This document shows, one piece after another, positions 30,376 to 53,917 of a stretch of 64,000 nucleotides of DNA. Below the pieces are notes generated by a model. The model saw only the letters and a list, made by a program, of their open reading frames with translations, did no database searches and was not told the DNA's origin. A program made the translations under genes and the position numbers. The DNA lies in NCBI GenBank assembly GCA_001816585.1, contig MHCJ01000003.1, positions 426,971 to 490,970 on the forward strand, read 5' to 3'. This DNA is from Candidatus Chisholmbacteria bacterium RIFCSPHIGHO2_01_FULL_52_32 (lineage in GTDB: Bacteria > Patescibacteriota > Microgenomatia > UBA1400 > Chisholmbacteraceae). The first letter of the stretch is position 1. Every line of letters starts with the position of its first letter.

Positions 30376-30444
30376 TTAATTAAACACTACAAACGGTTGT
30401 TGGTGCTGGGCGAAACCAGCGCCGCCGGTGATAAGAACTTTCAT
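30376..30444 (-). pseudogene. 5' remnant of a second NAD-dependent epimerase gene (22-codon ORF MKVLITGGAGFAQHQQPFVVFN*)
   Basis: A GC-rich Rossmann N-terminus MKVLITGGAGF is followed by a premature stop. It sits 38 nt upstream of, and out of frame with, the intact epimerase start. Its codon usage differs from the intact gene. Confidence 0.5.
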
Positions 30445-30484
30445 GAATTACGAATTATGAATAATGAATTATGAATTAAGAATA
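30443..30484. repeat. Heptanucleotide tandem array (ATGAATT-like) x6, immediately upstream of the epimerase-fragment ATG
   Basis: atgaatt acgaatt atgaata atgaatt atgaatt aagaata. Confidence 0.8.
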
Positions 30485-30500
30485 AGATCGATATAAGTGC

Positions 30501-31595: not shown

Positions 31596-31604
31596 AATAG
31601 CAGA

Positions 31605-31639
31605 ATGTTCAATGTTAAATGTGCGATGTTTAATGTTTG
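31605..31639. repeat. Heptanucleotide tandem array (ATGTTNN) x5 in the 5' region of the GT4 gene 30501..31595
   Basis: atgttca atgttaa atgtgcg atgttta atgtttg. Confidence 0.75.
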
Positions 31640-35731: not shown

Positions 35732-36790
35732 CTACCCGGCCAAAACTTGGGTATACACATTGATTGTTTCCCGCGCCGTTTTTTCCCAAGAGAACTTGTG
35801 ATTTTGTCGGTTCCCTTTTTCTATGAGGTGTCCTCTCTCCTTCTCTCCCAGCTTCATGGCTTTGATTATTCCACTTGCAATACTTTCGGTACTCAGTGGA
35901 TCCACGAATATCGCTGCTTCCCCGGCTACTTCCGGTATACTTGCCACTTTGCCAGCCACGACCGGGGTTTTGCACGCGAACGCTTCAAGTATCGGAAGCC
36001 CAAATCCTTCATAGAGGGAAGGTTGGATGTAGGCTTTGGCTTGGCTGTAAATCGCAGCGAGAGTTTCCGGACGGTCTAAGGGAACACTCGAACGGATGTG
36101 CACTCTGCCGCTCAACTTACTTTTTTCAATCGCCGATAGGATTTGTTTTACTTGCGGAAGAGCTTTATCGGCGAACACCCGCCCTACCAAAACCAGATGA
36201 ATATCTGGCATTTCCCGGCGTACCTTTTGCATCGCCGCAATGAGCTTCGTAAGATTTTTATTCGGGTTTACGTCACCGACGTAGAGGAGAAATTTTTTCG
36301 GGAGTGCGTATTTCTTTTTTATCCGTGCGATTTTTTCTTTTGATTGCGGCATAAACGCACCGTCTGCCGCTAAGTGGATGACGTGAATCTTTTCAGGCTC
36401 GATCCCCAAATATTTTGTGATATCTTTTTTGGAATTATAGGAATCCGCAATAATTGCCTCTACACTTCGAATAGCTAAGCGTTGAAGAAAGAACCTTGCC
36501 TTTCCACGCACCCCCGCAGGAAAATCCTTGGGAAAAATCAGGGGAATCACATCGTGGATGGTGACGACCGTTTTTGTCTTCCTTTTCAGAGGAAGTGTAT
36601 GGAAAAAGAGATCGAAGTAGGGGTAGTGGGTAAGATCGGCATTGCGTACAAGGTTTGCTTTTGTTGTCACGATGTACTGATTTTTCTTGTCTATCTTATG
36701 GAGCGCTTCGATAAGCCTTCGGGTATACATCCCAATCCCGCGCGTTTTATGGCCGGTCTTTAACGGAGAGATATCGATCACGACTTTCAT
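35732..36790 (-). CDS. Glycosyltransferase family 4
   Basis: MKVVIDISPLKTGHKTRGIG; C-terminal YEGFGLPILEAFACKTPVVAGKVASIPEV. Confidence 0.8.
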   Translation of the reverse strand: MKVVIDISPLKTGHKTRGIGMYTRRLIEALHKIDKKNQYIVTTKANLVRNADLTHYPYFDLFFHTLPLKRKTKTVVTIHDVIPLIFPKDFPAGVRGKARFFLQRLAIRSVEAIIADSYNSKKDITKYLGIEPEKIHVIHLAADGAFMPQSKEKIARIKKKYALPKKFLLYVGDVNPNKNLTKLIAAMQKVRREMPDIHLVLVGRVFADKALPQVKQILSAIEKSKLSGRVHIRSSVPLDRPETLAAIYSQAKAYIQPSLYEGFGLPILEAFACKTPVVAGKVASIPEVAGEAAIFVDPLSTESIASGIIKAMKLGEKERGHLIEKGNRQNHKFSWEKTARETINVYTQVLAG

Positions 36791-36796
36791 AAGAGA

Positions 36797-36826
36797 ATGA
36801 TTAATGATTAATGGTTAATGATTAAT
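36797..36826. repeat. Heptanucleotide tandem array (ATGATTA) x4, spanning the stop of GT2 36815..37615 and the 5' UTR of GT4 35732..36790
   Basis: atgatta atgatta atggtta atgatta. On the coding strand it reads (TAATCAT)n, giving TAA in all three frames, followed by TCTCTT-ATG. Confidence 0.8.
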
Positions 36827-39395: not shown

Positions 39396-40148
39396 TTAGA
39401 CGGGTTTAAATAGCCTACTTTTCGTGATCCCGTATTTATGGAGGAGATATTGCCCGAGGACCATGAAGCTTTCCGAGAGAAATTTCGCTCCTGCAAGAAG
39501 CCCGATCGATGAGGATTCCTCATAATAACGGACCGGAATCGGCGCTTCTCCGATGTTCAATCCGTATGAGATTGCAGAAACCGTGAATTGCTGGTCGAAG
39601 ATGAAATCGTTTGAGAATCGCTGGAATGGCACTGTCTTGAGGGTTTTTCGGCTATACGCCCGCATTCCGCTCATGTGCTCTGAGAAATTAACACCGAGGA
39701 TAATATTCGCGATAAGTGAATAGAGGCGGTTAAAAACGTACTTCAATTGCGGCATCCCGCCGGCCAAGGCCTCCGTTCTCGTCCGTATACGAGAGCCGAA
39801 CATGTAATCGTAGCGCTTCTGAATGATCGGTCGGACCAGTTCCGGAATGAGACTGGCGTCGTACTGGTAATCGGGATGGATCATGACTACGATATCCGGG
39901 TTTCTCTTGAGCGCCTCCCAGTAGCAGGTTTTTTGATTGCCGCCGTATCCGAGATTATTCGGATGGACAAATGTTGTGATTCCCAATTTTTTTGAAAGCT
40001 CGACGGTTTTATCTCTTGAGACATCGTCGACCAAGATGATCTCACTGACCCAATCTTTCGGGATGTCGTCGTAGGTCTTCTTTAACGTCTTTTCGGCGTT
40101 ATACGCCGGCATGACGACGATGATGGTTGGCTTGGAAACTTTGTTCAT
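39396..40148 (-). CDS. Polyprenyl-phosphate sugar synthase, GT2 (DPM1-like)
   Basis: IIVVMPAYNAEKTL...ILVDDVSRDKT...MIHPDYQYD. Confidence 0.7.
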   Translation of the reverse strand: MNKVSKPTIIVVMPAYNAEKTLKKTYDDIPKDWVSEIILVDDVSRDKTVELSKKLGITTFVHPNNLGYGGNQKTCYWEALKRNPDIVVMIHPDYQYDASLIPELVRPIIQKRYDYMFGSRIRTRTEALAGGMPQLKYVFNRLYSLIANIILGVNFSEHMSGMRAYSRKTLKTVPFQRFSNDFIFDQQFTVSAISYGLNIGEAPIPVRYYEESSSIGLLAGAKFLSESFMVLGQYLLHKYGITKSRLFKPV

Positions 40149-41776
40149 GTTCTTGTCAGCACAAAGGCGGTCTGGCCGTTCCGAAACTTTACCGTGTCAA
40201 GTACCGTGGCATCAGATGGGATTTCGTCCGGTGCTCCGATGATGAGCGTTCTCGGCAGTTGGCTATCCTTGGCATATTCTACCTTACGGAAGCGGTATTT
40301 TCCAAATCCCGCGGCTCCGCTTTCTGCAACCGATTGATAGTAGCTCGGATCGGTCTTGTCATAGAAAAGAAAAAAGATATAGGGTTGATCGTACCTCTGG
40401 GTCACAATTACCGTCTCCGCGTCGTCCCCAAGGCTGGTGACTATCTCGACCATCTCTTTGTACCCATACTGCCAGTCATGCGAGCGTTCGATGGGGGTGT
40501 GAATGTAATAGAGGTTCAGGTAGTAGACAAAATTAATACATACCAATAAACCAATAAATACCGATACATACCGATTTTTCTTGAGAATTCTCAATGCATG
40601 AATTATTCCGTAGGCGGTGATGATTTGAAGCACCGGGAGCATAAGCAGAGCCCGAACTGCGTGGGGAGCTTGGGTCGTAAGCGCAGAAGCAAGCGGAGCC
40701 ACCGCAAGCCAGGGAAAAATGAGTTTCATACCCGACCACTTATCTTTAATCATCGTATACAGCCCATACAGTAAAAATGGGAATTCCCATAGATACAAAA
40801 GCCCCATTCCCACCGCGCTATGCCTGCCGATCCCGTCACCACGCAAAAATAGGAAATCGAAGTTGAAATGCTTAAGGTATCCTTCGACGATGATCGTGGT
40901 AAAGACCAACGAACGCTGATGGAAAGGAGCAAAGATTGAGCCTCGGTCGCTGTCCTCTGTCCGATACTCTGCTTGGCGCTCGAGACGTTCCTGTTCCTGC
41001 GTATAGATTCCGGGGTTGGTGAAGACGCTTACAACGCTAAATCGTGCTTGGGCTGAGCCACGGATGAAGGTGAGGGCTATCGGTACCATCAGAAAAAGAC
41101 CCACGATAAACCCAAGGCCAATCTCCTTCCATCTTTGAACCAGCAGTTTTCTGAAAATCAGTGCCATAAGAAGAATGAATGCCGGAACGACCGCTCTCGC
41201 TGAGTGATAGGTGTACATCGTCGAGGCAAATGCAATGCTTGAACCAAACAGGAAGACGGCCTTGGCTGAACGGAGCCATTTGAGAAAGAGATACATCGCG
41301 AGGGTGAAAAAGAAGAGCGCGAGATTGGCTTCAAACGCCACGCGAGAAAATTGGAGGTGCCAGGGCGAAATCGCAAGGAGCAGCGCCGCCAGGGCGGCGA
41401 TTGCTATATTGTTAAATTGTTTTATTGTTTTATTGATCGTGAATAATTCTTTGACGAGGAAGTAGGTCACTAAAACTGTGAGGATGCCGGCAAGAGCGGA
41501 AGGAAAGCGAACGGCAAATTCTGTCAGGCCGAAGACCGCAATCGAAGAGACAGCAGCGTACGTATAGAGCGGCGGCTTGTAGTCGTTGAAGGAACGGATC
41601 GCAATGGGAAAGCTATTTCCGTATTCGTCTTTTCCGGTTTTCAAAATGGAGTAGGCGTTATAGCCTATCGACGCCTCATCCCAATCGAGGCTGGGGGGGT
41701 TTTGTCCGAGCTGGTATAACCGTAAAGCAGCCGCGACAAGAAGGATCGTCAGGAGCACTGCCGTTTTTCTCTTCAT
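40145..41776 (-). CDS. GT-C glycosyltransferase, ArnT/PMT-like (GT39-type), paralog A
   Basis: LDWDEASIGYNAYSIL DE-loop, FAVRFPSALAG, LLLAISPWHLQFSR. A C7 tract encodes the NPP near the 5' end. Confidence 0.65.
   Translation of the reverse strand: MKRKTAVLLTILLVAAALRLYQLGQNPPSLDWDEASIGYNAYSILKTGKDEYGNSFPIAIRSFNDYKPPLYTYAAVSSIAVFGLTEFAVRFPSALAGILTVLVTYFLVKELFTINKTIKQFNNIAIAALAALLLAISPWHLQFSRVAFEANLALFFFTLAMYLFLKWLRSAKAVFLFGSSIAFASTMYTYHSARAVVPAFILLMALIFRKLLVQRWKEIGLGFIVGLFLMVPIALTFIRGSAQARFSVVSVFTNPGIYTQEQERLERQAEYRTEDSDRGSIFAPFHQRSLVFTTIIVEGYLKHFNFDFLFLRGDGIGRHSAVGMGLLYLWEFPFLLYGLYTMIKDKWSGMKLIFPWLAVAPLASALTTQAPHAVRALLMLPVLQIITAYGIIHALRILKKNRYVSVFIGLLVCINFVYYLNLYYIHTPIERSHDWQYGYKEMVEIVTSLGDDAETVIVTQRYDQPYIFFLFYDKTDPSYYQSVAESGAAGFGKYRFRKVEYAKDSQLPRTLIIGAPDEIPSDATVLDTVKFRNGQTAFVLTRT
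41364..41470. repeat. 107-nt segment about 98% identical to 47373..47479 (inter-paralog gene-conversion tract), copy 1
   Basis: My manual alignment shows 2 mismatches in 107 nt. The flanks drop to about 80-85% identity. Confidence 0.8.
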
Positions 41777-43323
41777 CGTGGGTTGGAAAGCGGGTACACC
41801 CGAAACAAATACATGAAGCGGTTGCTCTTCCCTTTCTGATATTTCTTTATTAATTCGATATTCTCTTGGGGAGGAATTTGCTCGGGATACGATTCGTAAT
41901 ACACGAAGTAGGCGGGCTTTTTGGCAGCCATCGCACTCACCTCCTGAGGCACTTCCGTTACCGGCCAGAAGCCATGAATTTCAATATTGGGATTGTCCCA
42001 AAGGTAGAGTTCGAAGCTATAGGGCATGAGGCCAAATGTCCCCTGGGTTCCAAGAAAAATCTGCTTGTCTTTGGCTTCTTGTTTCAAGAATGCGATCACA
42101 TCGTCGATCCCCCACCCGGCGGGGAAACCATCAACGTATTGATCGCGGTCGGCCTGAATAATCGGCGCGTTCACCGGATCCGTGAGAACTTTTATGTCCA
42201 GAACCACCGCTGCTATCGTAAGAAAGAGGGCAAAGATCAGTTTTGGCTCGTTCCGTTTGACCGCAGAGAGGATTCGGTCCGTCGCAAGCGATGCTGCTAT
42301 GAGGAGGGGCGGGGTGATAAAGAGCAGATACCGCGCAAAAATCACCTTTCCGAAGGCTGCGGCAACAAGAAAAGGAAGCATTGCATGGATCAAAAGGAAG
42401 ACTAACCCTCTGGCATATTTGCGCAAGGAAAACGGATAGGTTTCGGGCAAGAGGACAAGACAAAAGCCCACGATTGCCGTTGTCATGACCGGCCAGGTCA
42501 ACCAGCCGACCCACCAGCGCCAAAGGCTCGGGAGGTTCCCCCAAAACCATCTCGTAGGATGTCCGAAAAATTCTCCGATGGTCGTGACGAACTCCAGGTT
42601 TTTTCGTCCGATCATGTGCATCCAGGGAGAGAGACGCATGATGTTTCGCATCGCTTCGGCTATGGCAAATGTTGGAACTGTAAGGAGGGCCCAGCGGACG
42701 ATATTTCTTTTTTCTCTTCCGGCAAAGAGGAGATTCAGCGGATAGAGATACTGAAAAAAAGCAGCCGGTGACTTTGTGAGAAGGCCTGCTCCCATGGCGA
42801 AACCGGTAAGCATTGCGTTGTCGAGCTTAAGGCTCTTTGCCGTTTTTACACCAAAATACAGCGTCCAGATTCCCCACATGGAGAGCATGGAATCGACCAA
42901 CGCAATCCGATCGTAAAATAGGGTGAATGGCGTGAGGAGGTAGAGGGCACTCGCCGTGAAGGCTGCGTTCTTGTTTTGAAAAAGCTCTTTTGTCAGAAAC
43001 CAGATCCCGACCGCTGCACCAAGACCGGACAGCGCGGAAACGGCCCTTCCGGCGATAAGCGGATCAGAAATAATCTTCATCGCAGCTATGGTAAACCAGT
43101 GCCAGAGCGGTTGTTTTCCGTCGGTCAACGGGATAAATCGGAGGGAGGCATCATGCAGGGCAATTTGACTCCAACGCGTATAGATGGCTTCGTCCGTGAA
43201 GATCGGCCATAACCGAAGATTCGTCAGCCTGGTTGTTAAATAAACTATCATCAGACCAGCCAGAATCCTGATTTCTCTGAGTGATACCAGGAACGGTCTT
43301 TTGATTTTTTGCGGTGTTTTCAT
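41773..43323 (-). CDS. GT-C glycosyltransferase, ArnT/PMT-like, divergent paralog
   Basis: IFTDEAIYTRW DE-loop; multi-TM. Confidence 0.55.
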   Translation of the reverse strand: MKTPQKIKRPFLVSLREIRILAGLMIVYLTTRLTNLRLWPIFTDEAIYTRWSQIALHDASLRFIPLTDGKQPLWHWFTIAAMKIISDPLIAGRAVSALSGLGAAVGIWFLTKELFQNKNAAFTASALYLLTPFTLFYDRIALVDSMLSMWGIWTLYFGVKTAKSLKLDNAMLTGFAMGAGLLTKSPAAFFQYLYPLNLLFAGREKRNIVRWALLTVPTFAIAEAMRNIMRLSPWMHMIGRKNLEFVTTIGEFFGHPTRWFWGNLPSLWRWWVGWLTWPVMTTAIVGFCLVLLPETYPFSLRKYARGLVFLLIHAMLPFLVAAAFGKVIFARYLLFITPPLLIAASLATDRILSAVKRNEPKLIFALFLTIAAVVLDIKVLTDPVNAPIIQADRDQYVDGFPAGWGIDDVIAFLKQEAKDKQIFLGTQGTFGLMPYSFELYLWDNPNIEIHGFWPVTEVPQEVSAMAAKKPAYFVYYESYPEQIPPQENIELIKKYQKGKSNRFMYLFRVYPLSNPR

Positions 43324-43363
43324 GGTTTAGGTTTCTGTTCCTCTATGAGGGCAAAATAACTTT

Positions 43364-44806
43364 TTACTGCCTTTCAGTATACCATCTCTGAGGGATCACC
43401 CCGAGAATAAGCGGCGGGAGAGCGATCGTTGCGAGCATCGCGATTTGCCAAAAGAAGTTCAGGGGGTAGAGATAGAAGGAGGCGAAGAGAACCGCATAAT
43501 AGAGAAGGCTCGTATAGGAAGACAAGAGAACAACCGCCTGGAGACGACCTCTCGGAAGAATGGCAGCAAACGGCAGTATCCAGGCAAGATACCATGGTTG
43601 AAGCATCGGGGAAACCAGTACGAGATAGAGAAGTATGATGACAACCATTCCTGCGATGACCCCCGTCCTTCGGATACGGCTTAGGGCGCCGGTCAACAGC
43701 AGAAGGAATGGGGGAATGGTCACCAACTTCTCTGCCCATACCGCTTGTCCCTTCTCAAATCCCATTTTAAGAAACATAAATCGTACAGCGGTGGGGAACG
43801 AGCGGAGGTAGAGTTCGAGTTGAACGCCGAGATTTCCGATGAAACCCCTCAGACCCTCCCCCAGGCTTAAGAACCCCCCGAGTGTCATAAGCGAAAACCA
43901 GGAGAGGAATCTTACAGCATCTCTTCGCTTCCCTTGCAGGAAAAGCCACCACCCAAAAATCGGCACAAAAAGGATCGCGACAACCTTGGCAAGAACCGCA
44001 AGGGCAAGGGCAGCCGCAGCGATCATCAGCCGTCCTTCGAAAAACCAATAGAATCCCAACAGCGAGAAAAACGCCATCACCATATCGTTATGGGCATTTC
44101 CGACAATCTCTATATGGATAAGTGGATTCCAGGCAAAGAGGGCAAGACCGTAGAGGAAGTTGTCCGGACTGTATTTTTGAAACCACTTTTTTAAAAGCAC
44201 GATTGTGGCCAATGTAAAAATCCCTCCCATGAACTTGAAACCAATTACATTCATGAGGAGGTCATCTTTTGCGAACACGTGGATCAATGAAGATGTGAGA
44301 AACTGCACCGGCCCGTACACCGAGGCACGAAACTTCCAGGATCCTAAATAGATAAACGGATCTTGGGGGAAGTTTTGCGGGGGCTCGATCCAGGGGTTTG
44401 CGTGGTGGACAAAAAGAACCCTGTTTGAAGCGATGTAATCAAAGACATCGGTTGAGAGCGCCGGAAACGAAAGAAATGTTGTTATTAGGAATGCGGCCGC
44501 ATATCGAAGAACAATCTTTGATGACGTCGATTGTCCTGATGATTGGTTCCGCAATAACCGCAGCGCTTTGGCGTACACCACGAACATCGCCGTAACCGTG
44601 AGGAAATATAGCAAGGTTGGGATGCTGTTGACGTGAAGCAATTTTGCCAGTTCTCTCCCCTTCTCCAGGAAACCGGGGGAGTCGGTCAGGAACGCGATGC
44701 GCTCGAGCAAAAAATCATCGCGCAGGAAGATGAGGTAGCTTACAACAGCGTATACCGCATAGAGAACTGCCAGAGTGATTCCGTATCGCTTAAGTTCTTT
44801 TCCCAT
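43364..44806 (-). CDS. Polytopic membrane protein, DUF2029/PimE(GT87)-like putative GT-C mannosyltransferase
   Basis: LSTDVFDYIASNRVLFVHHANPW loop; paralogous to the downstream gene. I chose the internal ATG (MGKELKRYGITLAV) at 44806 because the track start at 44890 would overlap its neighbour by 101 nt. Confidence 0.45.
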   Translation of the reverse strand: MGKELKRYGITLAVLYAVYAVVSYLIFLRDDFLLERIAFLTDSPGFLEKGRELAKLLHVNSIPTLLYFLTVTAMFVVYAKALRLLRNQSSGQSTSSKIVLRYAAAFLITTFLSFPALSTDVFDYIASNRVLFVHHANPWIEPPQNFPQDPFIYLGSWKFRASVYGPVQFLTSSLIHVFAKDDLLMNVIGFKFMGGIFTLATIVLLKKWFQKYSPDNFLYGLALFAWNPLIHIEIVGNAHNDMVMAFFSLLGFYWFFEGRLMIAAAALALAVLAKVVAILFVPIFGWWLFLQGKRRDAVRFLSWFSLMTLGGFLSLGEGLRGFIGNLGVQLELYLRSFPTAVRFMFLKMGFEKGQAVWAEKLVTIPPFLLLLTGALSRIRRTGVIAGMVVIILLYLVLVSPMLQPWYLAWILPFAAILPRGRLQAVVLLSSYTSLLYYAVLFASFYLYPLNFFWQIAMLATIALPPLILGVIPQRWYTERQ

Positions 44807-46160
44807 CGTTTGTGAACAGATACACCCCAATCGGAGGCACAACGAGAAATGCGTAGATTGCAAGTGTCCAGAGCGGATTTGTATAGTCAAAGCGATGGGA
44901 AGTAAAGAGGATGGCGTACTGGAGGCTTGAGGTCGCCGAGAAGGTAAGCGCGGCCTTCGTGAGCTTTGTTATCGGAAGCAAACTTAGGAAAGGGAGATAC
45001 CATATCGGATACCATGCCCAATAGAGCGTGACGACGAACATAAGGTATACCAGGGTCAACTTCACGTAGGCTGCCACAAGTTCCTTTTCGCTACCGATGG
45101 TTCGGACCGTGAACAAGGCAAAGAGCACAAACGGCAACGTAAAGATCCAATCCGGAATCATATTCAGAAGATTTGGTAAAGAATTCAACTTCAGTGTTGC
45201 TACCCACCCGAAGAGTTGCAGTTGATTGATGATGGATTCTTTTCCCATGAACCAACCGCCTGCAACCATCACTACCATAAACCCTAAAAGAAGCGATGCA
45301 GTCTTTCCAAGATCGGTTGTTTTTTTCAAGTTCAAAAAGATGTAGAACGGGAGGAGGACAACGGCGTAGAGTTTCACCAATGTCCCTAAAGCGATAAACA
45401 TCCCGGAGAGCAAGAAACGCTGTTTCCTTAGGGCAAGGAGACTTACAAGCATAAACGTCACCATGATGATATCGTTATGGGCGTTTCCCGCCGTTTCGAT
45501 GAGAAGCAAGGGGTTCAGTGCGAATAGCGCAAGCGCTCTGGTTTTGTTTCTTTCTCCAAGAAGTCTCATGACCGTGTAACACCCAAGAACCGTAAAGGCA
45601 ATCATCAGCAATTTAAATCCGAGGAGCGAAGCCGCAAGATTGTTCAATCCGAGGATGGCCGGAATTATCGTGAGCAGATGATGTACCGGACCATAGACGC
45701 TGGTTATTCTTGGCCAGCTCGCGAGGTTAATGAACGGATCGCCCGGAAAGTCAATTGCAGGCACGGTCCATGGGTTCTTGCCATAAACAAAGGGAATTCT
45801 CGTGTTGAGAATGTAGTCGAACACGTCCGATGAGAGTACCGGATAGGAAAAGAGTACGATCCCTTGAAAGGCAAGCGACCAGAGAAGGATGTTTCTCGGC
45901 CTCTGGATTGTTACCCATTGACCTCTTAGGATCTTTACGTAGCAAAAGAATGCCGAGAGTAAAATAGCGAATAAGAGTACCGTTGGAATCGTATTCAGAT
46001 GAAAAGGCAACGCTTGCTCACGGAATTGAACCAGGGTTTGCCCGACCGAAGGGTAAAACTGAGCGATTGCATCGAGGGCCCAGTCGTTTCGAAGGAGCAG
46101 AATATAGCTTAGGAAGGTATAAGCAAGGAAGCTTAGTCCTAAAAGCACAAGGTACTTCAT
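44790..46160 (-). CDS. Polytopic membrane protein, DUF2029/PimE(GT87)-like putative GT-C mannosyltransferase (paralog)
   Basis: LSSDVFDYILNTRIPFVYGKNPW; collinear with the 43364..44806 protein. Confidence 0.45.
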   Translation of the reverse strand: MKYLVLLGLSFLAYTFLSYILLLRNDWALDAIAQFYPSVGQTLVQFREQALPFHLNTIPTVLLFAILLSAFFCYVKILRGQWVTIQRPRNILLWSLAFQGIVLFSYPVLSSDVFDYILNTRIPFVYGKNPWTVPAIDFPGDPFINLASWPRITSVYGPVHHLLTIIPAILGLNNLAASLLGFKLLMIAFTVLGCYTVMRLLGERNKTRALALFALNPLLLIETAGNAHNDIIMVTFMLVSLLALRKQRFLLSGMFIALGTLVKLYAVVLLPFYIFLNLKKTTDLGKTASLLLGFMVVMVAGGWFMGKESIINQLQLFGWVATLKLNSLPNLLNMIPDWIFTLPFVLFALFTVRTIGSEKELVAAYVKLTLVYLMFVVTLYWAWYPIWYLPFLSLLPITKLTKAALTFSATSSLQYAILFTSHRFDYTNPLWTLAIYAFLVVPPIGVYLFTNDGKRT

Positions 46161-47791
46161 CGGAGCTCCCCAATCTCAAATGCCACTTCTCCATCGGGGA
46201 AGTAAACAAGTTCAAGGCGTTTTGCCTCTTTGGGCAATTCCGTCGGGGCTGCAACTATAAGCCATTTTTGGTTCTGGCTTGAACTTTTGTCCGGAATGCC
46301 TCCGAATCTATACCTGTCAAAACTTTCAACCGTCCAAAACCCATACCAATCTCGCTGGGCAACCCTGGTAGTCCAAAAGAGCCGAGGATCGAAACCTTGG
46401 TAGAAAAGCAGGTAGATATATGGCCGGCCATACTTGTTCGTGATAAAGACCTGATCGTAATCCCCCTGCATTTGGGAAACGCGGTTAATCATCTGTTTGT
46501 AGCCGTACTGCCAGGATCCCGCCCATTTGTCCGGATAGTGAACGAAATAGGTATGGAGATAGCTTGTGGCAAATAGAACATAGCTTATGGATAAAACGAT
46601 CAGATACAAACGCTTTTTTTTAACTATTTGGTAGAGTGCAATCGCCCCAACGGATGCAATAATTTGCGGTACCGGAAGGACATTGAGGGTGCGCAATGCG
46701 TGAGGTGTTTCGCGTGCTGTCGCCGCTGGGATAACGCCAACGAGCCACCAAAAAAATAAAATTATGGCAGCCGGATGTTTTTTTCTGATCAAGAAGTAGA
46801 TGCCGGCAAGAATAAGCGGCAGTTCAGTTGGATAAAATATCCCTTGGTCACGTGTCCCCAGTCTCGGATTGCCGTCTCCCGAAACGAACAGAAAATCCGC
46901 ACGAAAATGGTCTGCGTAATGCTTGGCAAACTCCAGGGAAAACTGAACCCTTCGATTATGCAGGATCCTTGACCACCATGCGTTGTTGTCCCTGGCTATC
47001 CGTTCATTTGCGGTCACCACCGGGTCAAGATTCTTAAAGATTGTTACCTCTTCAAAACGAAGCCTGCCTTCGCGGGAGAGGAGGAACGGTATCTGAGGAA
47101 CAACAAGTGCTATCCCCAGCACTATCGCCACTACTGTCCATCTCTTTTGTGCAAACAGCTGGCTTCGATAAATCGCTGCCAATCCGAGTACGAGGAGAGG
47201 CACGAATATCCGATGAGTATTGAAGGTGTACATGGAGAAAGCGAAAAGGATAAAACTCAAAACTAAAAACTTTCCATTTTTCATGCCTTTCATAAACAAA
47301 TACACCCCAGCGATGCTGAGGAATGTGGCGAGGTTTGCTTCAAATGCTGCTCTGGAAAATTGGATATGCCATGGCGAAATCGCAAGGAGCAGCGCCGCCA
47401 GGGCGGCGATTGCTATATTGTTAAATTGTTTTATTGTCTTATTGATCGTGAATAACTCTTTGACGAGGAAGTAGGTCACGAGGACCGTGAGGGTGCCGGC
47501 AAGGGCGGACGGAAAACGGACGGCAAATTCGTTTAGACCAAAGAGAGCAATCGAGGGAACCGTTGCGTAAATGTATCCGGGTGGTTTGTAGTCACCAAAA
47601 GCGATAAAACGAGCAATCGGAAGAAATTCTCCATGTTCATCACGACCGGTTGTAAGAATACTGTACGCGTTATATCCCAGGGACGCCTCGTCCCAGTACA
47701 ATGACGGGGGAGTTGTCCCGAGTCTGTAGAATCGAAGCACGACCGCGAGGATAATGATGGCGAGTAGTGTAATTATTTCTTTCTTCTTCAT
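46157..47791 (-). CDS. GT-C glycosyltransferase, ArnT/PMT-like (GT39-type), paralog F
   Basis: LYWDEASLGYNAYSIL. It shares a 107-nt near-identical segment with paralog A. Confidence 0.65.
   Translation of the reverse strand: MKKKEIITLLAIIILAVVLRFYRLGTTPPSLYWDEASLGYNAYSILTTGRDEHGEFLPIARFIAFGDYKPPGYIYATVPSIALFGLNEFAVRFPSALAGTLTVLVTYFLVKELFTINKTIKQFNNIAIAALAALLLAISPWHIQFSRAAFEANLATFLSIAGVYLFMKGMKNGKFLVLSFILFAFSMYTFNTHRIFVPLLVLGLAAIYRSQLFAQKRWTVVAIVLGIALVVPQIPFLLSREGRLRFEEVTIFKNLDPVVTANERIARDNNAWWSRILHNRRVQFSLEFAKHYADHFRADFLFVSGDGNPRLGTRDQGIFYPTELPLILAGIYFLIRKKHPAAIILFFWWLVGVIPAATARETPHALRTLNVLPVPQIIASVGAIALYQIVKKKRLYLIVLSISYVLFATSYLHTYFVHYPDKWAGSWQYGYKQMINRVSQMQGDYDQVFITNKYGRPYIYLLFYQGFDPRLFWTTRVAQRDWYGFWTVESFDRYRFGGIPDKSSSQNQKWLIVAAPTELPKEAKRLELVYFPDGEVAFEIGELR
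47373..47479. repeat. 107-nt segment about 98% identical to 41364..41470, copy 2
   Basis: Same alignment as copy 1. Confidence 0.8.
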
Positions 47792-47808
47792 GGTTGTCTA
47801 TTAATCTC

Positions 47809-48165
47809 CTACTTCAGCATCTTTTGGAGTTCGAACAGAAAGACCAGCGGGTAGAGCGCGATGATTAAGTAAAGTACGTTCCATGCTTTTCCTCCCCTTT
47901 TGGCGATGAAGTAGAGGACTGCAAGGAAAGCGATCGCGCCCAGAGGACTTAATACCTCACCTAAGAACTTCGGCGAAAGGTAGTGGAAGTAGCAGCGGGC
48001 GTAATTGAGGAAGAAAAACACCGGTTTGTTGTGCAAAACCCGTGTGAGCCATAAGGGAGTACCGCTTGGTCCATCCGTCGTAATTGCTTCCCAGATTTGG
48101 AGAGGGACATCGGTGGTAATTGCCACATGCGTGCAGAACAATCCTTCCATAGTTATATCTCCCAA
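47809..48165 (-). CDS. Small hypothetical membrane protein
   Basis: 118 aa with two or three hydrophobic helices, embedded in the paralog array. No recognisable motif. Confidence 0.3.
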   Translation of the reverse strand: MGDITMEGLFCTHVAITTDVPLQIWEAITTDGPSGTPLWLTRVLHNKPVFFFLNYARCYFHYLSPKFLGEVLSPLGAIAFLAVLYFIAKRGGKAWNVLYLIIALYPLVFLFELQKMLK

Positions 48166-49688
48166 ATGTTAAATACCGTATCGCCATTTACCATTTTTAT
48201 CTGTTCGTAACCGGTCTTTTCGTCCGGCTTCTGCCAGAATGGCGCGATAATTAGGGCTCGTTTCCCAGTTTTGGCAATCTCCCAAGCGTATTGGAAGTAC
48301 TTCACTTTCCCCATCTCTTTTGCGGGGTTCGAGAGTTTGTGATAATCCGAAGGCTCAACGGGAAGGTAAAACGCAACGTAAAGTGGTGGTAGTGCATCGC
48401 TCACAAATATTTCGTCGTATGCGTCCCATCGCTTTGCAATTATCTCCACCGTTTCTTTTATTCCGTCTTGCCAATCGAGGGCTGTCTCCCGCGGATAATG
48501 GATGTAGTACTGATGGATGTACAACAGGATGTTGTAACCAACTGCCAGAGCGAGTACACCCAGTACCAAAATTCTGGTTGCCTCCCGTTTTTGACGGTTG
48601 ATTACCTTCAGTACCCCTACGGCTCCGATTGCCGTTATGATCTCCCACGCCGGAAGCATGTTCAAAGTACGGATCGCATGGGGATTGATGTTTGAGAGGG
48701 AAACCGATACGGGAGCAAGGAGAAGCCAGGCAAATACCATGTTTCTTCCGTTCCCTTTTCCTTTGATCAGGGTCCGGAGGCCGAGAAGAACCAGCGGCAG
48801 TTCAAATACATAGAGCATTCCAAGCTTTCTTACACTGTGCCTTCCATTTTGATCACCTCTGAAAAAGAGAAATGTGGTATCGAAATTTGCGAGATAATTT
48901 TCAAACACTTTGGGGAAGAGCTTTTCTTTTCCGATGATGCTTTCGGAATACGCACGGATGACCGCTTCTCCCGAAATGATCGACGGGACAAAGGGAAGAC
49001 TTAAGATCACACCCGTTACGACAGCGGTGGCAAGATCCCTTTTTGCTTTCATTACATTCTTCCTGCAAATCCAGACCAAAGCCAGGAGTATAAGGGGTGC
49101 AAACAAGCGTGTGCTGATATACGTAGCTGCGGAGAGTAAGAACAAGATGACAGAAACGGTTAACCACATCCCATGTTTACGAAGTGATACAAGAAATGCG
49201 TACCACCCTGCAACAAGGAAGAACAAGGCGAGGTTCGCCTCAAAGCCTCCCCGAGAAAATTGGAGATGCCATGGCGAAATCGCAAGAAGCAGTGCAGCTA
49301 CTGCCGCAATGGCTGATGGCTGATGGCTGATGGCTGATGGCTTTTTTTCAAACAGTTCAACGACGAGGAAGTACATCAGAAGAACCGTGAGGGTGCCGGC
49401 AAGGGCGGAGGGGAAACGGACGGCAAAATCCGATCTGCCAAGGAGCTTTACACTGATGGCTGCTATGTAAATATAGCCCGGATATTTGTAGTCTCCAAAA
49501 GCCCGAAAACTTACCGGTAAACTTTTTCCATATTGGTCCTTTCCCGTTTGCGCAATGGAGTATGCGTTATACCCGATCGAAATCTCATCCCAGTAGAGCC
49601 CGGGTGGCATTACGGCAAGATTGTAAAACCTTAAGACTCCGGCCAGGATCGTGATTAAGCTTAAGAGGAGGATCGTTTTCGCTTTCAT
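48153..49688 (-). CDS. GT-C glycosyltransferase, ArnT/PMT-like (GT39-type), paralog G
   Basis: LYWDEISIGYNAYSIA. The loop insert KKPSAISHQPSAISHQPSAI is encoded by (GCTGATG)4. Confidence 0.65.
   Translation of the reverse strand: MKAKTILLLSLITILAGVLRFYNLAVMPPGLYWDEISIGYNAYSIAQTGKDQYGKSLPVSFRAFGDYKYPGYIYIAAISVKLLGRSDFAVRFPSALAGTLTVLLMYFLVVELFEKKPSAISHQPSAIAAVAALLLAISPWHLQFSRGGFEANLALFFLVAGWYAFLVSLRKHGMWLTVSVILFLLSAATYISTRLFAPLILLALVWICRKNVMKAKRDLATAVVTGVILSLPFVPSIISGEAVIRAYSESIIGKEKLFPKVFENYLANFDTTFLFFRGDQNGRHSVRKLGMLYVFELPLVLLGLRTLIKGKGNGRNMVFAWLLLAPVSVSLSNINPHAIRTLNMLPAWEIITAIGAVGVLKVINRQKREATRILVLGVLALAVGYNILLYIHQYYIHYPRETALDWQDGIKETVEIIAKRWDAYDEIFVSDALPPLYVAFYLPVEPSDYHKLSNPAKEMGKVKYFQYAWEIAKTGKRALIIAPFWQKPDEKTGYEQIKMVNGDTVFNIWEI
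49307..49343 (-). repeat. Intragenic heptanucleotide tandem repeat (GCTGATG)4 plus a degenerate flank, next to a T7/A7 tract
   Basis: Read directly: gcaatg gctgatg gctgatg gctgatg gctgatg gct ttttttt. It encodes SAISHQP repeats in paralog G. Confidence 0.85.
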
Positions 49689-51352
49689 CTTTTCATGATT
49701 GAAACTGTCGGTTCACCGTTTGGAAGTCTAATGACCTTCAGCGCTTCATCCCTTTGTGATTTGGGCGTCTGTGCATAGAGATCAACAAGCAGCACCGGAG
49801 TTTCCGATGGACCTTCGCTGTAATTGATAGGTTGAAATAGAAACTTCCCGAATTTATTTTTGGTTTCCAGAAATCCTCCGGAAACCGTACCTCCGTCGAT
49901 ATTTATGTACGTCCACGGATCGTATTTTGTGTAGAACGCGAAGAAGTTCTGCGGTTGTCGGAGGTTGGTGGAAACGATCACTTTCGAGTTTTCGTCTTTA
50001 TGAAGATCAGCGTACTCCGCCGCCTCTTTATATCCATACTGCCAACTTTCCGCAAACTCAAGCGGCCCATGGACATAGTACTGATGGAGATAGTGATATA
50101 CGCTTCCGGCAACGAGTACGGCCGAAAGCATGAAGGTGACTATGCGCAAACCCTTCCTCATTTTCTTAACTGCGGCAAGAGCGGTAAGGACGCCGACTGC
50201 CGAGAAAATTTGCAGTGTCGGCAACGCTACGGTCATCCTTACTGAGCTTGGGATATCCCACGTCAGTGCCGAGGCAACCGGCGACAAAAGAAACCAACCG
50301 AGGAGAATTCCGAATGGCCGGCGGTCCTTGAGATGTGCCATTTTGCAGAGTCCGAGAAGAATAAGCGGCAATTCACCAAGGTAGAGGAGACCGACGTTCG
50401 GCGCATGATTGTACGGCATCCCTTTCGTTCCTAAGAATAAAAGGTCTGGTTGAAAGTGCTTTAGATAGCCGTCGCTAACCGTCAGAAATCCGGCGAAGTA
50501 TCGGTTGTGCAGGAACTTCACCCCCAGCCAGTCTTGTCTTTGAGCATCAACTACTCTCCTTCCTGTTTCTTTCTCAACAAGTCCCGGGTGCTCGAAGACG
50601 CTGGTTCCCTTAAATCGCATGAGCCCTGCTTGGGAAAATAGAATTGGGGAAAGCGGAAGGCTGAGGATTAAGAAAGCGAATGCCGCAATGCAGGCATCTC
50701 GCCTTTTTAGCCAAATGGTTTTCCCGTAAATTCCGGCAAGGGCGACCAAAAAGAGCGGAATAAAAAGCCTCGAAGTTTGATAGGTGTACAAAGAGAGGCT
50801 GAAGCTTGCCGCCGTGCCTATCCACCAACGGCCGTTTCCTCGAATACCTTTGAGAAATGTCCAGACGCCTAAAACGGTTAGGAATACCGCGATGTTGGTT
50901 TCAAATGCAACACGGGAGACCTGAAGGTGCCATGGCGAAATTGCGAGGAGAAGTGCGGCGATTTCGCCAACTGAAAACTGAAAACTGAAAACTGACAACT
51001 TTAGCCTCGGGAAAAGTTCCCTCACAAGAAAATAGGTCAAGAGGACCGTGAGAGTGCCGGCAAGGGCGGAGGGAAAGCGGACGGCAAATGGATTGAGGCC
51101 GGAGGCTGCAATTGAGGGAACCGAGAGGTAAATATACAGGGGCGGTTTGTAATCGTCGTGGGAGCGAAAGACGAGCGGCAAGCGCTTCCCATACTCATCC
51201 ATTCCCGTTTTGAGAATTGAGTAGGCGTTATAGCCGATCGCGACTTCATCGAGGTTCAGGCTTGGAGGATTTTTTCCGAGTTGATAGAATCGCAGCACCG
51301 CGGCGAGCGTGACTATAGCTGCTAGGGTAAATCCTGTTCGCATTTCCCTCAC
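49685..51352 (-). CDS. GT-C glycosyltransferase, ArnT/PMT-like (GT39-type), paralog H
   Basis: LNLDEVAIGYNAYSIL. The loop insert LKLSVFSFQFSV is encoded by (AACTGAA)3-4. Confidence 0.65.
   Translation of the reverse strand: MREMRTGFTLAAIVTLAAVLRFYQLGKNPPSLNLDEVAIGYNAYSILKTGMDEYGKRLPLVFRSHDDYKPPLYIYLSVPSIAASGLNPFAVRFPSALAGTLTVLLTYFLVRELFPRLKLSVFSFQFSVGEIAALLLAISPWHLQVSRVAFETNIAVFLTVLGVWTFLKGIRGNGRWWIGTAASFSLSLYTYQTSRLFIPLFLVALAGIYGKTIWLKRRDACIAAFAFLILSLPLSPILFSQAGLMRFKGTSVFEHPGLVEKETGRRVVDAQRQDWLGVKFLHNRYFAGFLTVSDGYLKHFQPDLLFLGTKGMPYNHAPNVGLLYLGELPLILLGLCKMAHLKDRRPFGILLGWFLLSPVASALTWDIPSSVRMTVALPTLQIFSAVGVLTALAAVKKMRKGLRIVTFMLSAVLVAGSVYHYLHQYYVHGPLEFAESWQYGYKEAAEYADLHKDENSKVIVSTNLRQPQNFFAFYTKYDPWTYINIDGGTVSGGFLETKNKFGKFLFQPINYSEGPSETPVLLVDLYAQTPKSQRDEALKVIRLPNGEPTVSIMKR
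50969..50996 (-). repeat. Intragenic heptanucleotide tandem repeat (AACTGAA)3 plus a degenerate unit
   Basis: aactgaa aactgaa aactgaa aactgac. It encodes SVFSFQFSV in paralog H. Confidence 0.8.
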
Positions 51353-52977
51353 TCCTTTGTCAAGAACTGCATAGCGATCGTCTGATCGGGCCTTCTTACG
51401 ACGTTCACTACTTTTGCTCCTTTAACTTCACCGCACTCTCCTACGTTTCCGTAGAGTGTTTTTCCCTCCGCCACTGTACGTTCATTCAATGGACAAGGGT
51501 CTCTGACGAAACGAACTTTCTCTCCAAAATCCCAATCTCCTTGAACGTTTCTTTTGTCATTTACAAGCTTCTGCGCAAGAGAAGGATCAGTTTTTGTAAA
51601 GAACAGGAAGTACAAATATGGCTCTGTCCCTGATTTACTGATGAGAATTTTGTCATACTTGCTTTGGACCTGGTTTACGTAGGCTACGATCTCCGGGAAC
51701 TGGATATTTCTGTTCCATGGCTGATGCAAGGGCTGATGGATAGTGTACTGATGGCTGAATCGTCCAATCTCCCAGACGACCCCAACAACGAATAAAACTG
51801 TTACCAGCGTACGCAGTAGCTTGGCTCTTTTTTGCACTTTTCTGTAAACAAACACGAACCCCATCGCCGTAATGATCTGAAAACCGGGGAGCATGAAGAC
51901 CGATCGTTGAATGTTGGGCGCATCTTCGGTTGTTAACGCTGCCGGAAGACCTCCTGCGAGAAACCAAAATAGTGCGTAGGCACTTGAAAGCTTGAATCGT
52001 TTTACTGCGGCGAAGAGCCCGAGGAGGAAAAAAGGCGCTTCAAACCAATACTGCAAAGTTTGTTCCGGAACCACATAGCGAGTCGGGTAACCGCCTTGGA
52101 CGAACAGGAAATTGAGACTTACGTATTTGAAATACTCCCGAAAGAACTCGCGAGCGCTGTTCTCGACTTTATTGTGAAAGAGGCGCGTCACCACAATGGG
52201 GAGCCCCACGCCCCCATCTTCCAGGAATGATGTTTGGAGGCGTGCCACGGCTGACTGGGGTGTAATATTGCCAATCTGTCGGTAGCGAGCAAGTCCGGCT
52301 CCGCTTTGTATCGTCACCCATACCGGCAGGACGGTAAAGAGCGCCAGCATGAGCGACAACACCAACGCTTGGGATTTTCGGTGCTTTACTAAAAGGAAAA
52401 TGATCCAAAAGAGCGCGTGGATATAGATGAACGGTCGTACTCCAATGTAGGAAAAGTACGTTACGACCCAGGAAAGATAGGTTAGCAGCAGTAATGCTGT
52501 ACCCTTGGATTTTACCCAAGACACCAGCAAAAGCATTGATCCCAAAAAGAAAACGAGGCCGAGAGCTCCGTCTGTCGTCGACCGCGAGAGGATGATGTGC
52601 CACGGGGAAACGGCAAACAGAGCACTTGAGAGTAATGCCAGTTGTTCGTCGTCAAAAAGCTTTTTGACAAGAACATATGTGAGGAAGACGGCAAATACCC
52701 CAAGAAGCGCAACCGAAAACCGTACGGCAAACACATTGACACCGAAGAGCGCTATCCAAGGGGACGTAAGGTACATCGAAAGCATTGGGCGGGCTTCGTT
52801 GTAAAAACTGGTATGGAGTGGTAAGAAGTTCCCGTTTTCGTCGCGGAGAGTTTTTAAGATCGAGTAGGCGTTATAGCCCACCTGAACTTCATCCATATCG
52901 AAGCCTGCCGGGAAACGGTCAAGCCATAGAAGCCGCAAGATCGCTGCCAGAATTAAAATCAGATACAGTTTCTTCAT
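51349..52977 (-). CDS. GT-C glycosyltransferase, ArnT/PMT-like (GT39-type), paralog I
   Basis: FDMDEVQVGYNAYSIL; FAVSPWHIILSR. Confidence 0.6.
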   Translation of the reverse strand: MKKLYLILILAAILRLLWLDRFPAGFDMDEVQVGYNAYSILKTLRDENGNFLPLHTSFYNEARPMLSMYLTSPWIALFGVNVFAVRFSVALLGVFAVFLTYVLVKKLFDDEQLALLSSALFAVSPWHIILSRSTTDGALGLVFFLGSMLLLVSWVKSKGTALLLLTYLSWVVTYFSYIGVRPFIYIHALFWIIFLLVKHRKSQALVLSLMLALFTVLPVWVTIQSGAGLARYRQIGNITPQSAVARLQTSFLEDGGVGLPIVVTRLFHNKVENSAREFFREYFKYVSLNFLFVQGGYPTRYVVPEQTLQYWFEAPFFLLGLFAAVKRFKLSSAYALFWFLAGGLPAALTTEDAPNIQRSVFMLPGFQIITAMGFVFVYRKVQKRAKLLRTLVTVLFVVGVVWEIGRFSHQYTIHQPLHQPWNRNIQFPEIVAYVNQVQSKYDKILISKSGTEPYLYFLFFTKTDPSLAQKLVNDKRNVQGDWDFGEKVRFVRDPCPLNERTVAEGKTLYGNVGECGEVKGAKVVNVVRRPDQTIAMQFLTKE

Positions 52978-53020: not shown

Positions 53021-53917
53021 TTAACCGAATTTTCCCAGTACTTCCCGATCGGACACGATACATAGTCGTTTTTCTTTCCATCTTTTCCTTATAGCTTGGG
53101 GGAACTTTAGAAAGGCTTTAAGCGTCCCCGCCACGAATGCCTTGTCGCTTGTGCAAACTGCCCTGAGGAATAACCAGGGAAGCCACACGATGTGACTGAC
53201 GATCATGGCCGGATCATGGATATTCTTCCAGACAAAGAGAATCTGATTTTTCGCAGCTATCCTCCGAATCCGCTCCCTCCCAAACGCGCTGACGTTGGTG
53301 CTTTCCGGTTCATGATGAACAATAGATTGCGGTTCGAAATGAACTTCCCATCCCCTTTTCCAAGCGCGATACGAGAGGTCGATGTCCTCCCAGTAGGCAG
53401 GGTGAAATAGCGTGTCCATACCCCGAAGCTTGAGCCACATTTCTCGGCGAAACGCCGCGCTTCCGCCGAATGCCCAGAGGGTTGGTCCGGGCGTTCGGTT
53501 TTTGGCTTCGGCGTGGACGAGGAGGCCCTTTTCAAATCTTCCGATCGCTTTTCCCCGTGTTTTCTCTCCAACCATCTCTTGGCATCCGACCGCAAAGACC
53601 CCTGGATCGTTAAAGTGCGGTTCAAGCGCTGTGAGAAAATTCGGCTCGGGATAAACGTCCGTGTTCAGAAGAATTACAATCTCTCCTTTCGCGTGCTGAA
53701 CACCTCTGTTACAGGCTTTCGCAAACCGGAGATTTTTGGAGTTTACCAAAAGGCGAACCTCGGGATATTTTGCTTTCAGGAGTTCTACGCTCTCGTCTGT
53801 TGAGGCATCGTCGACCACAATGACTTCATTTTTCCCAGCCGCCTTTAAAACCTCAGGGAGGTTCTTCTTAAGAAGATGAGCCCCATTATAATTCGGAATA
53901 ACGATAGAGAATTTCAT
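53021..53917 (-). CDS. Glycosyltransferase family 2
   Basis: FSIVIPNYNGAHLL...VIVVDDASTDES...LNTDV. I chose the internal ATG (MKFSIVIPNY) at 53917; the track ORF extends to 54079 inside the upstream gene. Confidence 0.7.
   Translation of the reverse strand: MKFSIVIPNYNGAHLLKKNLPEVLKAAGKNEVIVVDDASTDESVELLKAKYPEVRLLVNSKNLRFAKACNRGVQHAKGEIVILLNTDVYPEPNFLTALEPHFNDPGVFAVGCQEMVGEKTRGKAIGRFEKGLLVHAEAKNRTPGPTLWAFGGSAAFRREMWLKLRGMDTLFHPAYWEDIDLSYRAWKRGWEVHFEPQSIVHHEPESTNVSAFGRERIRRIAAKNQILFVWKNIHDPAMIVSHIVWLPWLFLRAVCTSDKAFVAGTLKAFLKFPQAIRKRWKEKRLCIVSDREVLGKFG

Follow-up and report, generated by a model that had tools for sequence, protein, structure and literature searches.

Heptanucleotide repeat arrays at recurrent sites of a tandem GT-C glycosyltransferase family in a Chisholmbacteria glycosylation island

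The 64-kb stretch of Candidatus Chisholmbacteria DNA analysed here (positions 426,971 to 490,970 of contig MHCJ01000003.1; hereafter the window) encodes six GT-C glycosyltransferase paralogs on its minus strand, named A, B, F, G, H and I. Several of these carry a short tandem repeat array at one turn between their second and third transmembrane (TM) helices, with a unit of 7 nt in G and H. These arrays are probably slippage-generated 21-nt insertions at permissive sites, with only occasional inactivation of the genes that carry them. The window is 100% identical to MHCM01000003.1, a contig of 1.158 Mb from a Candidatus Chisholmbacteria metagenome-assembled genome (MAG; GCA_001816955.1) from the Rifle aquifer, belonging to the Microgenomates within the Candidate Phyla Radiation (CPR).

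In the proposed mechanism, replication slippage in a 7-nt register would be the dominant source of tandem repeats in Microgenomates. Selection would then filter the products, with only stop-free units, net three-unit changes and permissive sites surviving inside open reading frames (ORFs). Since the frame survives only if the net change is three units (21 nt, 7 aa), short arrays of ~4.5 units would remain at permissive places. Such places would be the TM2-TM3 turn, a second cytoplasmic turn continuing into the last TM helix, GT2 and GT4 loops and segments of YfhO and PTPS-like proteins. Arrays containing stop codons are found immediately before start codons. The arrays are still mutable, loss of three units giving an in-frame length variant and loss of one unit a truncated enzyme, and inactivation would be occasional rather than a regulated high-frequency switch.

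Repeat arrays in the paralogs

Tandem repeats were located using Tandem Repeats Finder (TRF) and an exact-run scan. The following arrays and adjoining tract were identified in the paralogs:

49309..49342, minus strand: heptamer array of G, (CCATCAG)x4 + CCAT on the coding strand, encoding PSAISHQPSAI in the TM2-TM3 turn (TRF, 4.9 copies, 100% matches)
49343..49349, minus strand: A7 homopolymer on the coding strand, adjoining the G array on its 5' side and coding for part of EKK (sequence)
50969..51000, minus strand: heptamer array of H, (TCAGTTT)x3 + TCAGTTG on the coding strand, encoding LSVFSFQFSV in the TM2-TM3 turn (TRF)
41400..41435, minus strand: degenerate period-8 array of A (CAATAAAA-like), encoding TINKTIKQFNN in the TM2-TM3 turn (TRF, 4.5 copies, 85%)
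47409..47444, minus strand: degenerate period-8 array of F in the TM2-TM3 turn, with the same peptide as A (TRF and sequence)
40535..40572, minus strand: degenerate period-8/10 array of A, encoding the start of the last TM helix (RYVSVFIGLLVCI) (TRF and sequence)

The arrays of G and H occupy the same protein position, and the last array listed for A is a decayed array at the second hot spot of the family, described below. On the plus strand, the G array reads (ATGGCTG)x4.9 followed by T7 at 49343-49349, and the H array (AACTGAA)x4.6 with 96% matches. This agrees with an earlier prediction made from the letters of the window (the original prediction), which described the G insert as a GCTGATG-type heptamer array beside an A7/T7 tract, the H insert as an AACTGAA array and the A/F insert as a degenerate 8-mer array. 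The G array is perfect, with 4.6-4.9 units. Some details had to be corrected. The G peptide, given as KKPSAISHQPSAISHQPSA, is actually KKPSAISHQPSAI, one 7-aa period too many having been counted. Paralog I, to which an insert was ascribed, has none, as its DDEQ aligns with the 4-residue ground-state turn of the family. Furthermore, A and F carry one and the same insert, so that not every paralog has a different one.

Within the window, 7 is the commonest period of exact repeats. All nine period-7 arrays lie within 26.5-54.7 kb, and none was found in the left 26 kb (positions 1-26000), which encodes GT4, GT2, DegT aminotransferases and methyltransferases.

Natural length alleles

Two alleles with a changed number of units were found in nature. 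Protein P0002 (504 aa, SRR3989344), which falls in the 90%-identity cluster of G, lacks exactly PSAISHQ, i.e. three units (21 nt) in frame, and carries two substitutions besides. In contig L006 (ENA ERZ27254846), H has lost a single unit. This 7-nt deletion is the only internal indel and splits H into ORFs of 152 and 311 aa. Both allele classes foreseen by the original prediction, an in-frame length variant and a frameshift, are hereby represented.

Among same-species contigs, the window allele was present in 15 of 16 for H and in 18 of 18 for G. The F array is invariant in 13 such contigs and that of a YfhO-family gene (54627-54663) in nine; overall, the arrays are near-invariant across ~20 same-species assemblies. 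Ten predicted allele products (G with -2, -1, +1, +2 and +3 units; H with -3, -1, +1, +2 and +3) were looked up in a collection of 15 billion proteins, and none was found by exact match. Such a look-up has little sensitivity, since substitutions would make it miss even the genuine L006 fragment. Word-index searches of the same collection with the N-terminal 122-123 residues of G and H, representing truncated OFF fragments, returned only P0178 of L006. A metagenome contig scan with H found no same-species loci, only relatives at ≤61% identity, which were used for statistics.

Could the arrays or their length variants be errors of sequencing or assembly? Truncated family fragments on long contigs do stem from an indel-ridden long-read assembly (ERZ1286166). 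Two of these short fragments, P0239 and P0274, were considered as OFF alleles and rejected, since genes are fragmented throughout that assembly. However, the G and H arrays are identical in ~16-18 independent short-read assemblies (NCBI, JGI, ENA and Logan), which effectively refutes an artefact for the arrays themselves, and L006 and P0002 differ by exact whole units on haplotypes with further substitutions. An artefactual origin is therefore scarcely credible.

A more serious alternative is that the arrays are true contingency loci, i.e. selected arrays at which slippage by ±1 unit switches GT-C paralogs, GT2, YfhO and PTPS-like genes and genes with start-proximal arrays ON and OFF. A population would then mix surface glycans, for example to evade phages or vary host attachment. 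A unit that is not a multiple of three, placed within the first quarter of a surface-glycan enzyme's ORF, is in line with this, as are the frameshifted L006 and the in-frame length allele P0002. Against it, the OFF state is seen in only 1 of 16 contigs for H and 0 of 18 for G, and a single truncated near-identical fragment was retrieved from the 15 billion proteins.

Independent short-read contigs also tend to end at certain places of this locus, namely at 49317-49409 (four contigs, within ~70 nt of the G array), at ~48617 and at ~50177-50307. The four ends beside the G array might be read as allele bubbles and hence in favour of contingency, but may equally reflect the flanks. Their meaning is ambiguous, because these flanks are the most paralog-conserved DNA and end clusters exist elsewhere as well.

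Distribution across Microgenomates

To place the arrays in their lineage, 79 genome loci, 80 metagenome loci and the window were combined into a data set of 2.24 Mb. TRF identified 226 period-7 arrays, compared to 55, 46 and 44 for periods 8, 6 and 9, respectively, so that period 7 accounts for about half of all arrays. After codon-block shuffling, 13 period-7 arrays were found, corresponding to a ~17-fold excess in the observed sequences. Heptamers thus dominate the tandem repeats throughout Microgenomates glycan loci and are not a feature special to this paralog array.

Homologs of G number 1,610 at E ≤ 1e-20, all of Microgenomates type, and many have 7-aa-periodic inserts exactly at the TM2-TM3 turn, with differing units. 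Inside 564 family genes, 124 heptamer arrays were identified. Of these, 39 lie at profile columns 100-119, the TM2-TM3 turn, and 62-67 at a second hot spot (columns 340-379), which comprises the last TM helix together with the cytoplasmic turn that precedes it. Together, the two cytoplasmic turns hold 101 of the 124 arrays (p = 3e-70 against a uniform spread). Arrays at the second site often encode a TM helix, e.g. LFAICYLLFAIF. This site, at 70% of the ORF and building a TM helix, speaks against contingency.

None of the 124 arrays is out of frame. Only three of ~580 family genes are split, none of them at an array. ON and OFF alleles are therefore not both common among the sampled genomes, the L006 fragment being the single OFF case. 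The lengths of the family arrays stop abruptly at 34 nt (~4.9 units), a ceiling that a single in-frame gain of 21 nt, starting from a seed of ≤13 nt, would produce. By comparison, the heptanucleotide loci of H. influenzae have 13-38 units (PMC2651432), which may count against contingency. The architecture of contingency loci proposed in the original prediction stands as regards the non-triplet unit within an ORF and the existence of both allele classes, but its signature is weak: the tracts are short, OFF arrays are wanting among the 124 and the contigs are near-invariant.

The turn has its ground-state length in 240 of 510 family genes. No clean ladder of +7-aa steps in turn length was found in these 510 genes; peaks occur at +4 and +6. 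At the same turn, four Curtissbacteria homologs (P0064, P0097, P0197 and P0186) have a non-repetitive insertion of ~60 aa containing ...GGPPKA.LAFS..ETIDRTRS.... Two fragments have it in frameshifted form, and it may represent a small inserted element.

Structure and topology of the turn

An AlphaFold (AF2) model of paralog G, built with 64 homologs, has a mean predicted local distance difference test score (pLDDT) of 94.5 and a predicted TM-score (pTM) of 0.93. In this model, residues 114-123 form a non-helical turn flanked by helices 87-113 and 124-136, in line with the expectation that the insert lies in a loop and not in a TM helix. With the helices numbered from the N-terminus, all the short K/R-rich loops of G (114-123, 172-174, 208-216, 310-312 and 365-368) are placed on one face; the DE motif (located between helices 3-21 and 33-48) is on the opposite face, as are the C-terminal domain and the conserved PHAxR loop. 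The model indicates that the insert is a cytoplasmic TM2-TM3 hairpin turn, because the K/R-rich loops share its side (positive-inside rule) and because of the established topology of ArnT/PMT enzymes. The original prediction spoke of glycosyltransferases that bear periplasmic loops; in the model the insert is on the other side of the membrane from the DE motif and the C-terminal domain.

In the family alignment, the ground state of this turn is four residues long (KELF-xxxK-IALL...SPWH). What had been termed a hypervariable loop is a 4-residue cytoplasmic turn that would tolerate insertions, and its sequence diversity is consequently not surface diversity. The cytoplasmic position, together with the arrays within TM helices and soluble enzymes, is a further point against contingency loci.

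Cassette exchange between paralogs

Sliding-window identity reveals mosaic proteins. P0014 is an ortholog of G (80-93% identity) with a turn of the H type, 80-90% identical to H and 30-53% to G. Likewise, P0036 is an ortholog of F with the G-type turn SSVISHQSSVI. Within the window, A and F are 96-100% identical around the turn and 20-45% elsewhere. Their inserts share 32 of 33 nt, within a common 227-nt segment (41319-41545 and 47328-47554) of 87% identity; recent gene conversion between A and F was ruled out, as the shared segment is only 87% identical. Judging by these mosaics, the cassette of TM2, turn and TM3 has evidently been swapped among paralogs by gene conversion across the conserved flanks.

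The near-identity of the A and F inserts, with flanks at 87%, could also point to selection on the protein. Here, 7-residue periodic peptides (LEIGNWK, ISNxKxQ, LSVFSFQ) would function as an adjustable cytoplasmic spacer or interaction motif, and the DNA repeat would merely be the means of making spacers. The heptad 'ruler' repeats of H. pylori fucosyltransferases provide an analogy, and recurring peptide themes are shared by unrelated proteins and genomes. Nevertheless, recurrence of a few AT-rich units is expected in any case because a heptamer inside an ORF must lack stops in three phases. Moreover, units differ widely between paralogs and species, and the insert is judged to be wanting in most members (ground-state length as given above). 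Finally, the turn has a pLDDT of 77, the lowest of the N-terminal half of the model. Selection for the peptide as such is consequently considered highly unlikely.

Occasional inactivation or regulated switching

Several observations weigh against slippage with mere tolerance and have to be set beside the evidence above. Building a heptamer array inside a gene needs frameshifted intermediates, so OFF states must be tolerated at least transiently, a point that favours contingency. Insertion tolerance alone is also insufficient for the choice of sites, as the length-variable periplasmic regions of the family proteins have 810 insertions and only one heptamer array. In addition, the assemblies give consensus alleles, so that minority length variants are invisible to all tests used.

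The distribution of arrays over genes points the same way. Family genes contain 14.2 arrays per 100 kb; the corresponding values are 39 for intergenic DNA, 8.5 for proteins having 0-1 TM helices and 4.8 for the remaining multi-pass proteins, the GT-C family having about twice the density of other coding sequence. The 65 array-bearing genes outside the family include 27 GT2, ten PTPS-related, eight YfhO, five other PMT_2 and four GT4 genes. A random control of 121 neighbouring genes comprised 97 families, with GT2 in 23. Envelope-glycosylation families make up ~59 of the 65 array genes and 70 of the 121 controls (Fisher p ~2e-6, from approximate counts). Such a bias to envelope genes, combined with the GT-C density, is the pattern that contingency loci show. 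Perfect arrays at the same site in homologs that are only ~40% identical further imply continuing turnover.

Given the in-frame state of the arrays, their short tracts and the constancy of the contigs, true contingency loci are regarded as possible but doubtful, and slippage-generated insertion with occasional inactivation is retained as the probable explanation.

Paralog family and gene content of the island

Every ORF scanned across the 64 kb was assigned to glycan biosynthesis, and the paralog locus therefore lies inside a very large island of envelope-glycosylation genes, at least 64 kb long. Its families include GT2, GT4, sugar epimerases, aminotransferases, methyltransferases, an EamA transporter and DUF2304, next to the membrane proteins YfhO, PTPS-related, GT87 and PMT_2. 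The six paralog ORFs were confirmed on the minus strand, among the following genes:

39396..40148, minus strand: GT2, 250 aa, start overlapping the stop of A (PF00535, 66.5 bits)
40145..41776, minus strand: paralog A, GT-C (PMT_2/PMT) glycosyltransferase, 543 aa (PF13231, 43.5 bits; PF02366, 36.4 bits; both above cut-off)
41773..43323, minus strand: paralog B, more distant ArnT-like GT-C, 516 aa, turn QNKN without array (PF13231, 54.3 bits; alignment)
43364..44806, minus strand: GT87/MptA-B-like, polyprenol-phosphate-mannose-type GT-C, 480 aa as called in other assemblies (TIGR03459, weak)
44790..46160, minus strand: GT87-like GT-C, 456 aa (PF09594 GT87, 37.7 bits; TIGR03459 and MptB matches)
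46157..47791, minus strand: paralog F, GT-C, 544 aa (PF13231 and PF02366 above cut-off)
47809..48150, minus strand: conserved hydrophobic ORF of 113 aa, separating F from G and called in all same-species contigs
48153..49688, minus strand: paralog G, GT-C, 511 aa, 11 predicted TM helices and a C-terminal extracytoplasmic domain (HMM, AF2, Foldseek)
49685..51352, minus strand: paralog H, GT-C, 555 aa from GTG 51352 or 552 aa from ATG 51343 (HMM matches)
51349..52977, minus strand: paralog I, GT-C, 542 aa, 4-residue turn DDEQ, without array (PF13231, 33.6 bits; alignment)

Based on hidden Markov models (HMMs), all six paralogs match PF13231 (PMT_2) with 33.6-54.3 bits against a gathering cut-off of 26.1. 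PF02366 (PMT) is matched above its cut-off of 22.7 by A, B, F, G and H, with I below at 18.2. In a Foldseek search of the PDB, the G model matches ArnT first (5f15, E = 2e-8, TM-score 0.61) together with 5ezm, followed by AglB, STT3, PglB and Pmt4. The ArnT/PMT GT-C assignment of the original prediction is hereby borne out. The DE motif (D34, E35) shows no variation across the 64-sequence family alignment. By sequence and model, the locus can be described as a tandem family of polyprenyl-phosphate-sugar-dependent GT-C glycosyltransferases of the PMT_2/ArnT-like type.

With ArnT (GT83) and PMT (GT39) these proteins share the PMT_2/PMT matches, the DE motif in the first extracytoplasmic loop, the GT-C fold, 11 TM helices and an outside C-terminal domain, ArnT being the best structural match. 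They differ in being only 12% identical to ArnT and far under the equivalog cut-off. The ArnT equivalog NF009784 (cut-off 567 bits) gave at best 26 bits, for B, and ≤21 bits or no match for the others. By this measure the paralogs are not ArnT proper, the lipid A 4-amino-4-deoxy-L-arabinosyltransferase. The GT2 at 39396..40148 is likely a polyprenyl-phosphate-sugar synthase supplying the GT-C enzymes.

Five of the paralogs (A, F, G, H and I) had been called consecutive genes, but B and two GT87/MptA-like genes stand between A and F, and the 113-aa ORF between F and G. As for their supposed translational coupling, 4-nt start/stop overlaps are present for A/B and G/H; for H/I this holds only if H starts at GTG 51352, and gene callers take ATG 51343 (552 aa). 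PF26314 (MptA_B_family) is annotated on the called gene matching 43364..44806 in loci L002 and L178. The 113-aa ORF has no Pfam match. In one JGI contig (L010), it is shortened to 96 aa by a 45-bp in-frame deletion (47969-48013).

Arrays outside the family

Elsewhere in the window, the following heptamer arrays were identified:

26584-26614 and 26751-26778: two arrays in the soluble GT4 gene 26195-27385, encoding mid-protein NLKLQISKYKL and VEEVKSEKLKVK
30443-30485, gene on the minus strand: non-coding array, unit ATGAATT (plus strand), abutting the ATG of a very short ORF
31604-31637, gene on the minus strand: non-coding array, unit AATGTTC (plus strand), preceding the start of gene 30501-31595
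36796-36826, gene on the minus strand: non-coding array, unit AATGATT (plus strand), preceding the start of gene 35732-36790
54627-54663: array, CATAATT-like (coding strand), in the YfhO-family gene 53886-56147, encoding KTIIHNSLFIVLF, partly a TM helix

The two arrays of the GT4 gene show that arrays are not confined to membrane proteins. In GT2 genes of the data set, arrays again favour two positions, near residues 50 and 97. A non-coding array typically terminates 0-15 nt ahead of a start codon, in the window as in many loci; the three in the window stop 0-8 nt short of ATG or TTG codons on the minus strand. Directly after the array at 30443-30485, an ATG opens a very short ORF (30413-30444, minus strand), MKVLITGGAGF..., which mimics the N-terminus MKILITGGAGF of an epimerase with its true start 107 nt downstream at 30337, in another frame. 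This ORF looks like a relic duplicate of the 5' end of the epimerase gene. The longest heptamer array observed, a perfect (AGATTTA)x8.9 at L065:976-1037, is intergenic and belongs to an uncultured Microgenomates-type MAG, in which a 549-aa gene follows ~84 nt downstream.

Implications

On the conservative reading, the arrays are a distinctive mutational signature, in which slippage in a 7-nt register gives rise to insertions of seven residues, and even to entire TM-helix segments, at two cytoplasmic turns that are the same in hundreds of GT-C paralogs throughout Microgenomates. For annotation, length variants and apparent frameshifts are to be expected at these turns. The signature also helps to understand how paralog families diversify in reduced genomes.

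A stronger claim would be that Microgenomates, across the lineage, diversify their envelope-glycosylation genes by heptanucleotide slippage as a selected mechanism, which is considered unlikely. If true, dozens of such genes per genome (GT-C paralogs, GT2, YfhO and PTPS-like) would carry short 7-nt arrays at fixed permissive sites or start codons. Slippage by ±1 unit and cassette exchange would then reshuffle the active enzymes, leading to heterogeneous surface glycans in episymbiont populations. If the arrays switch at appreciable rates, they would be the first hint that surface glycosylation in the CPR undergoes phase variation based on simple sequence repeats (SSRs).

Comparison with known systems

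Surface-glycan contingency loci with homopolymer tracts are found in Neisseria and Campylobacter. In H. influenzae, SSR contingency loci comprise tetranucleotide lipopolysaccharide genes and heptanucleotide hmw loci (PMC2651432). The present arrays resemble these in having a non-triplet repeat in the 5' part of a glycan-modifying gene, where a single-unit change frameshifts, and in their natural length alleles and bias to envelope genes. They differ in having 3-5 units as opposed to ~10-40, and no OFF state among 124 arrays in related genomes. Furthermore, those contingency loci belong to host-adapted bacteria, whereas here GT-C membrane enzymes of an uncultured groundwater CPR bacterium carry the array in a cytoplasmic turn.

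Heptanucleotide SSRs and SSR-variable glycosyltransferases are each already known. In the literature searched, nothing relevant was found on heptamer repeats in CPR, Patescibacteria or Chisholmbacteria, and recurrent site-specific heptamers in GT-C paralog families of CPR bacteria were not found in the searchable literature.

Summaries of Mrazek et al. (2007) in PMC4692102 and PMC4679880 state that, among long SSRs, heptamers form the largest class in many bacteria, and ascribe them to polymerase slippage. In the same summaries, they are mainly intergenic in Xanthomonas, Nostoc, Burkholderia and others, and SSRs within ORFs are usually multiples of three. The 7-nt slippage bias suggested here would fit this heptamer excess. 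Period 7 is dominant in both cases, and the cause proposed, as far as those summaries relate it, is a slippage bias related to the polymerase footprint. Unlike the heptamers so summarised, most Microgenomates arrays lie within ORFs, where they recur at particular positions of the protein.

In its layout, the published system that comes closest is the TAACTGA heptamer of marine Beggiatoaceae, cyanobacteria and some Bacteroidetes, present in 2-6 copies (PMC4679880). Its main class ends a few nt upstream of start codons, a minority is reversed inside ORFs, encoding LSVISYQ, and indels in 7-nt steps occur between strains (PMC4679880). The window arrays at 30443, 31604 and 36796 likewise abut start codons, and the H unit TCAGTTT (LSVFSFQ) is one base from TCAGTTA. 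In contrast to the TAACTGA system, many units are used here, with an in-ORF majority at homologous sites of one enzyme family. These arrays tie Microgenomates to the unexplained heptamer-repeat phenomena of cyanobacteria and Beggiatoaceae.

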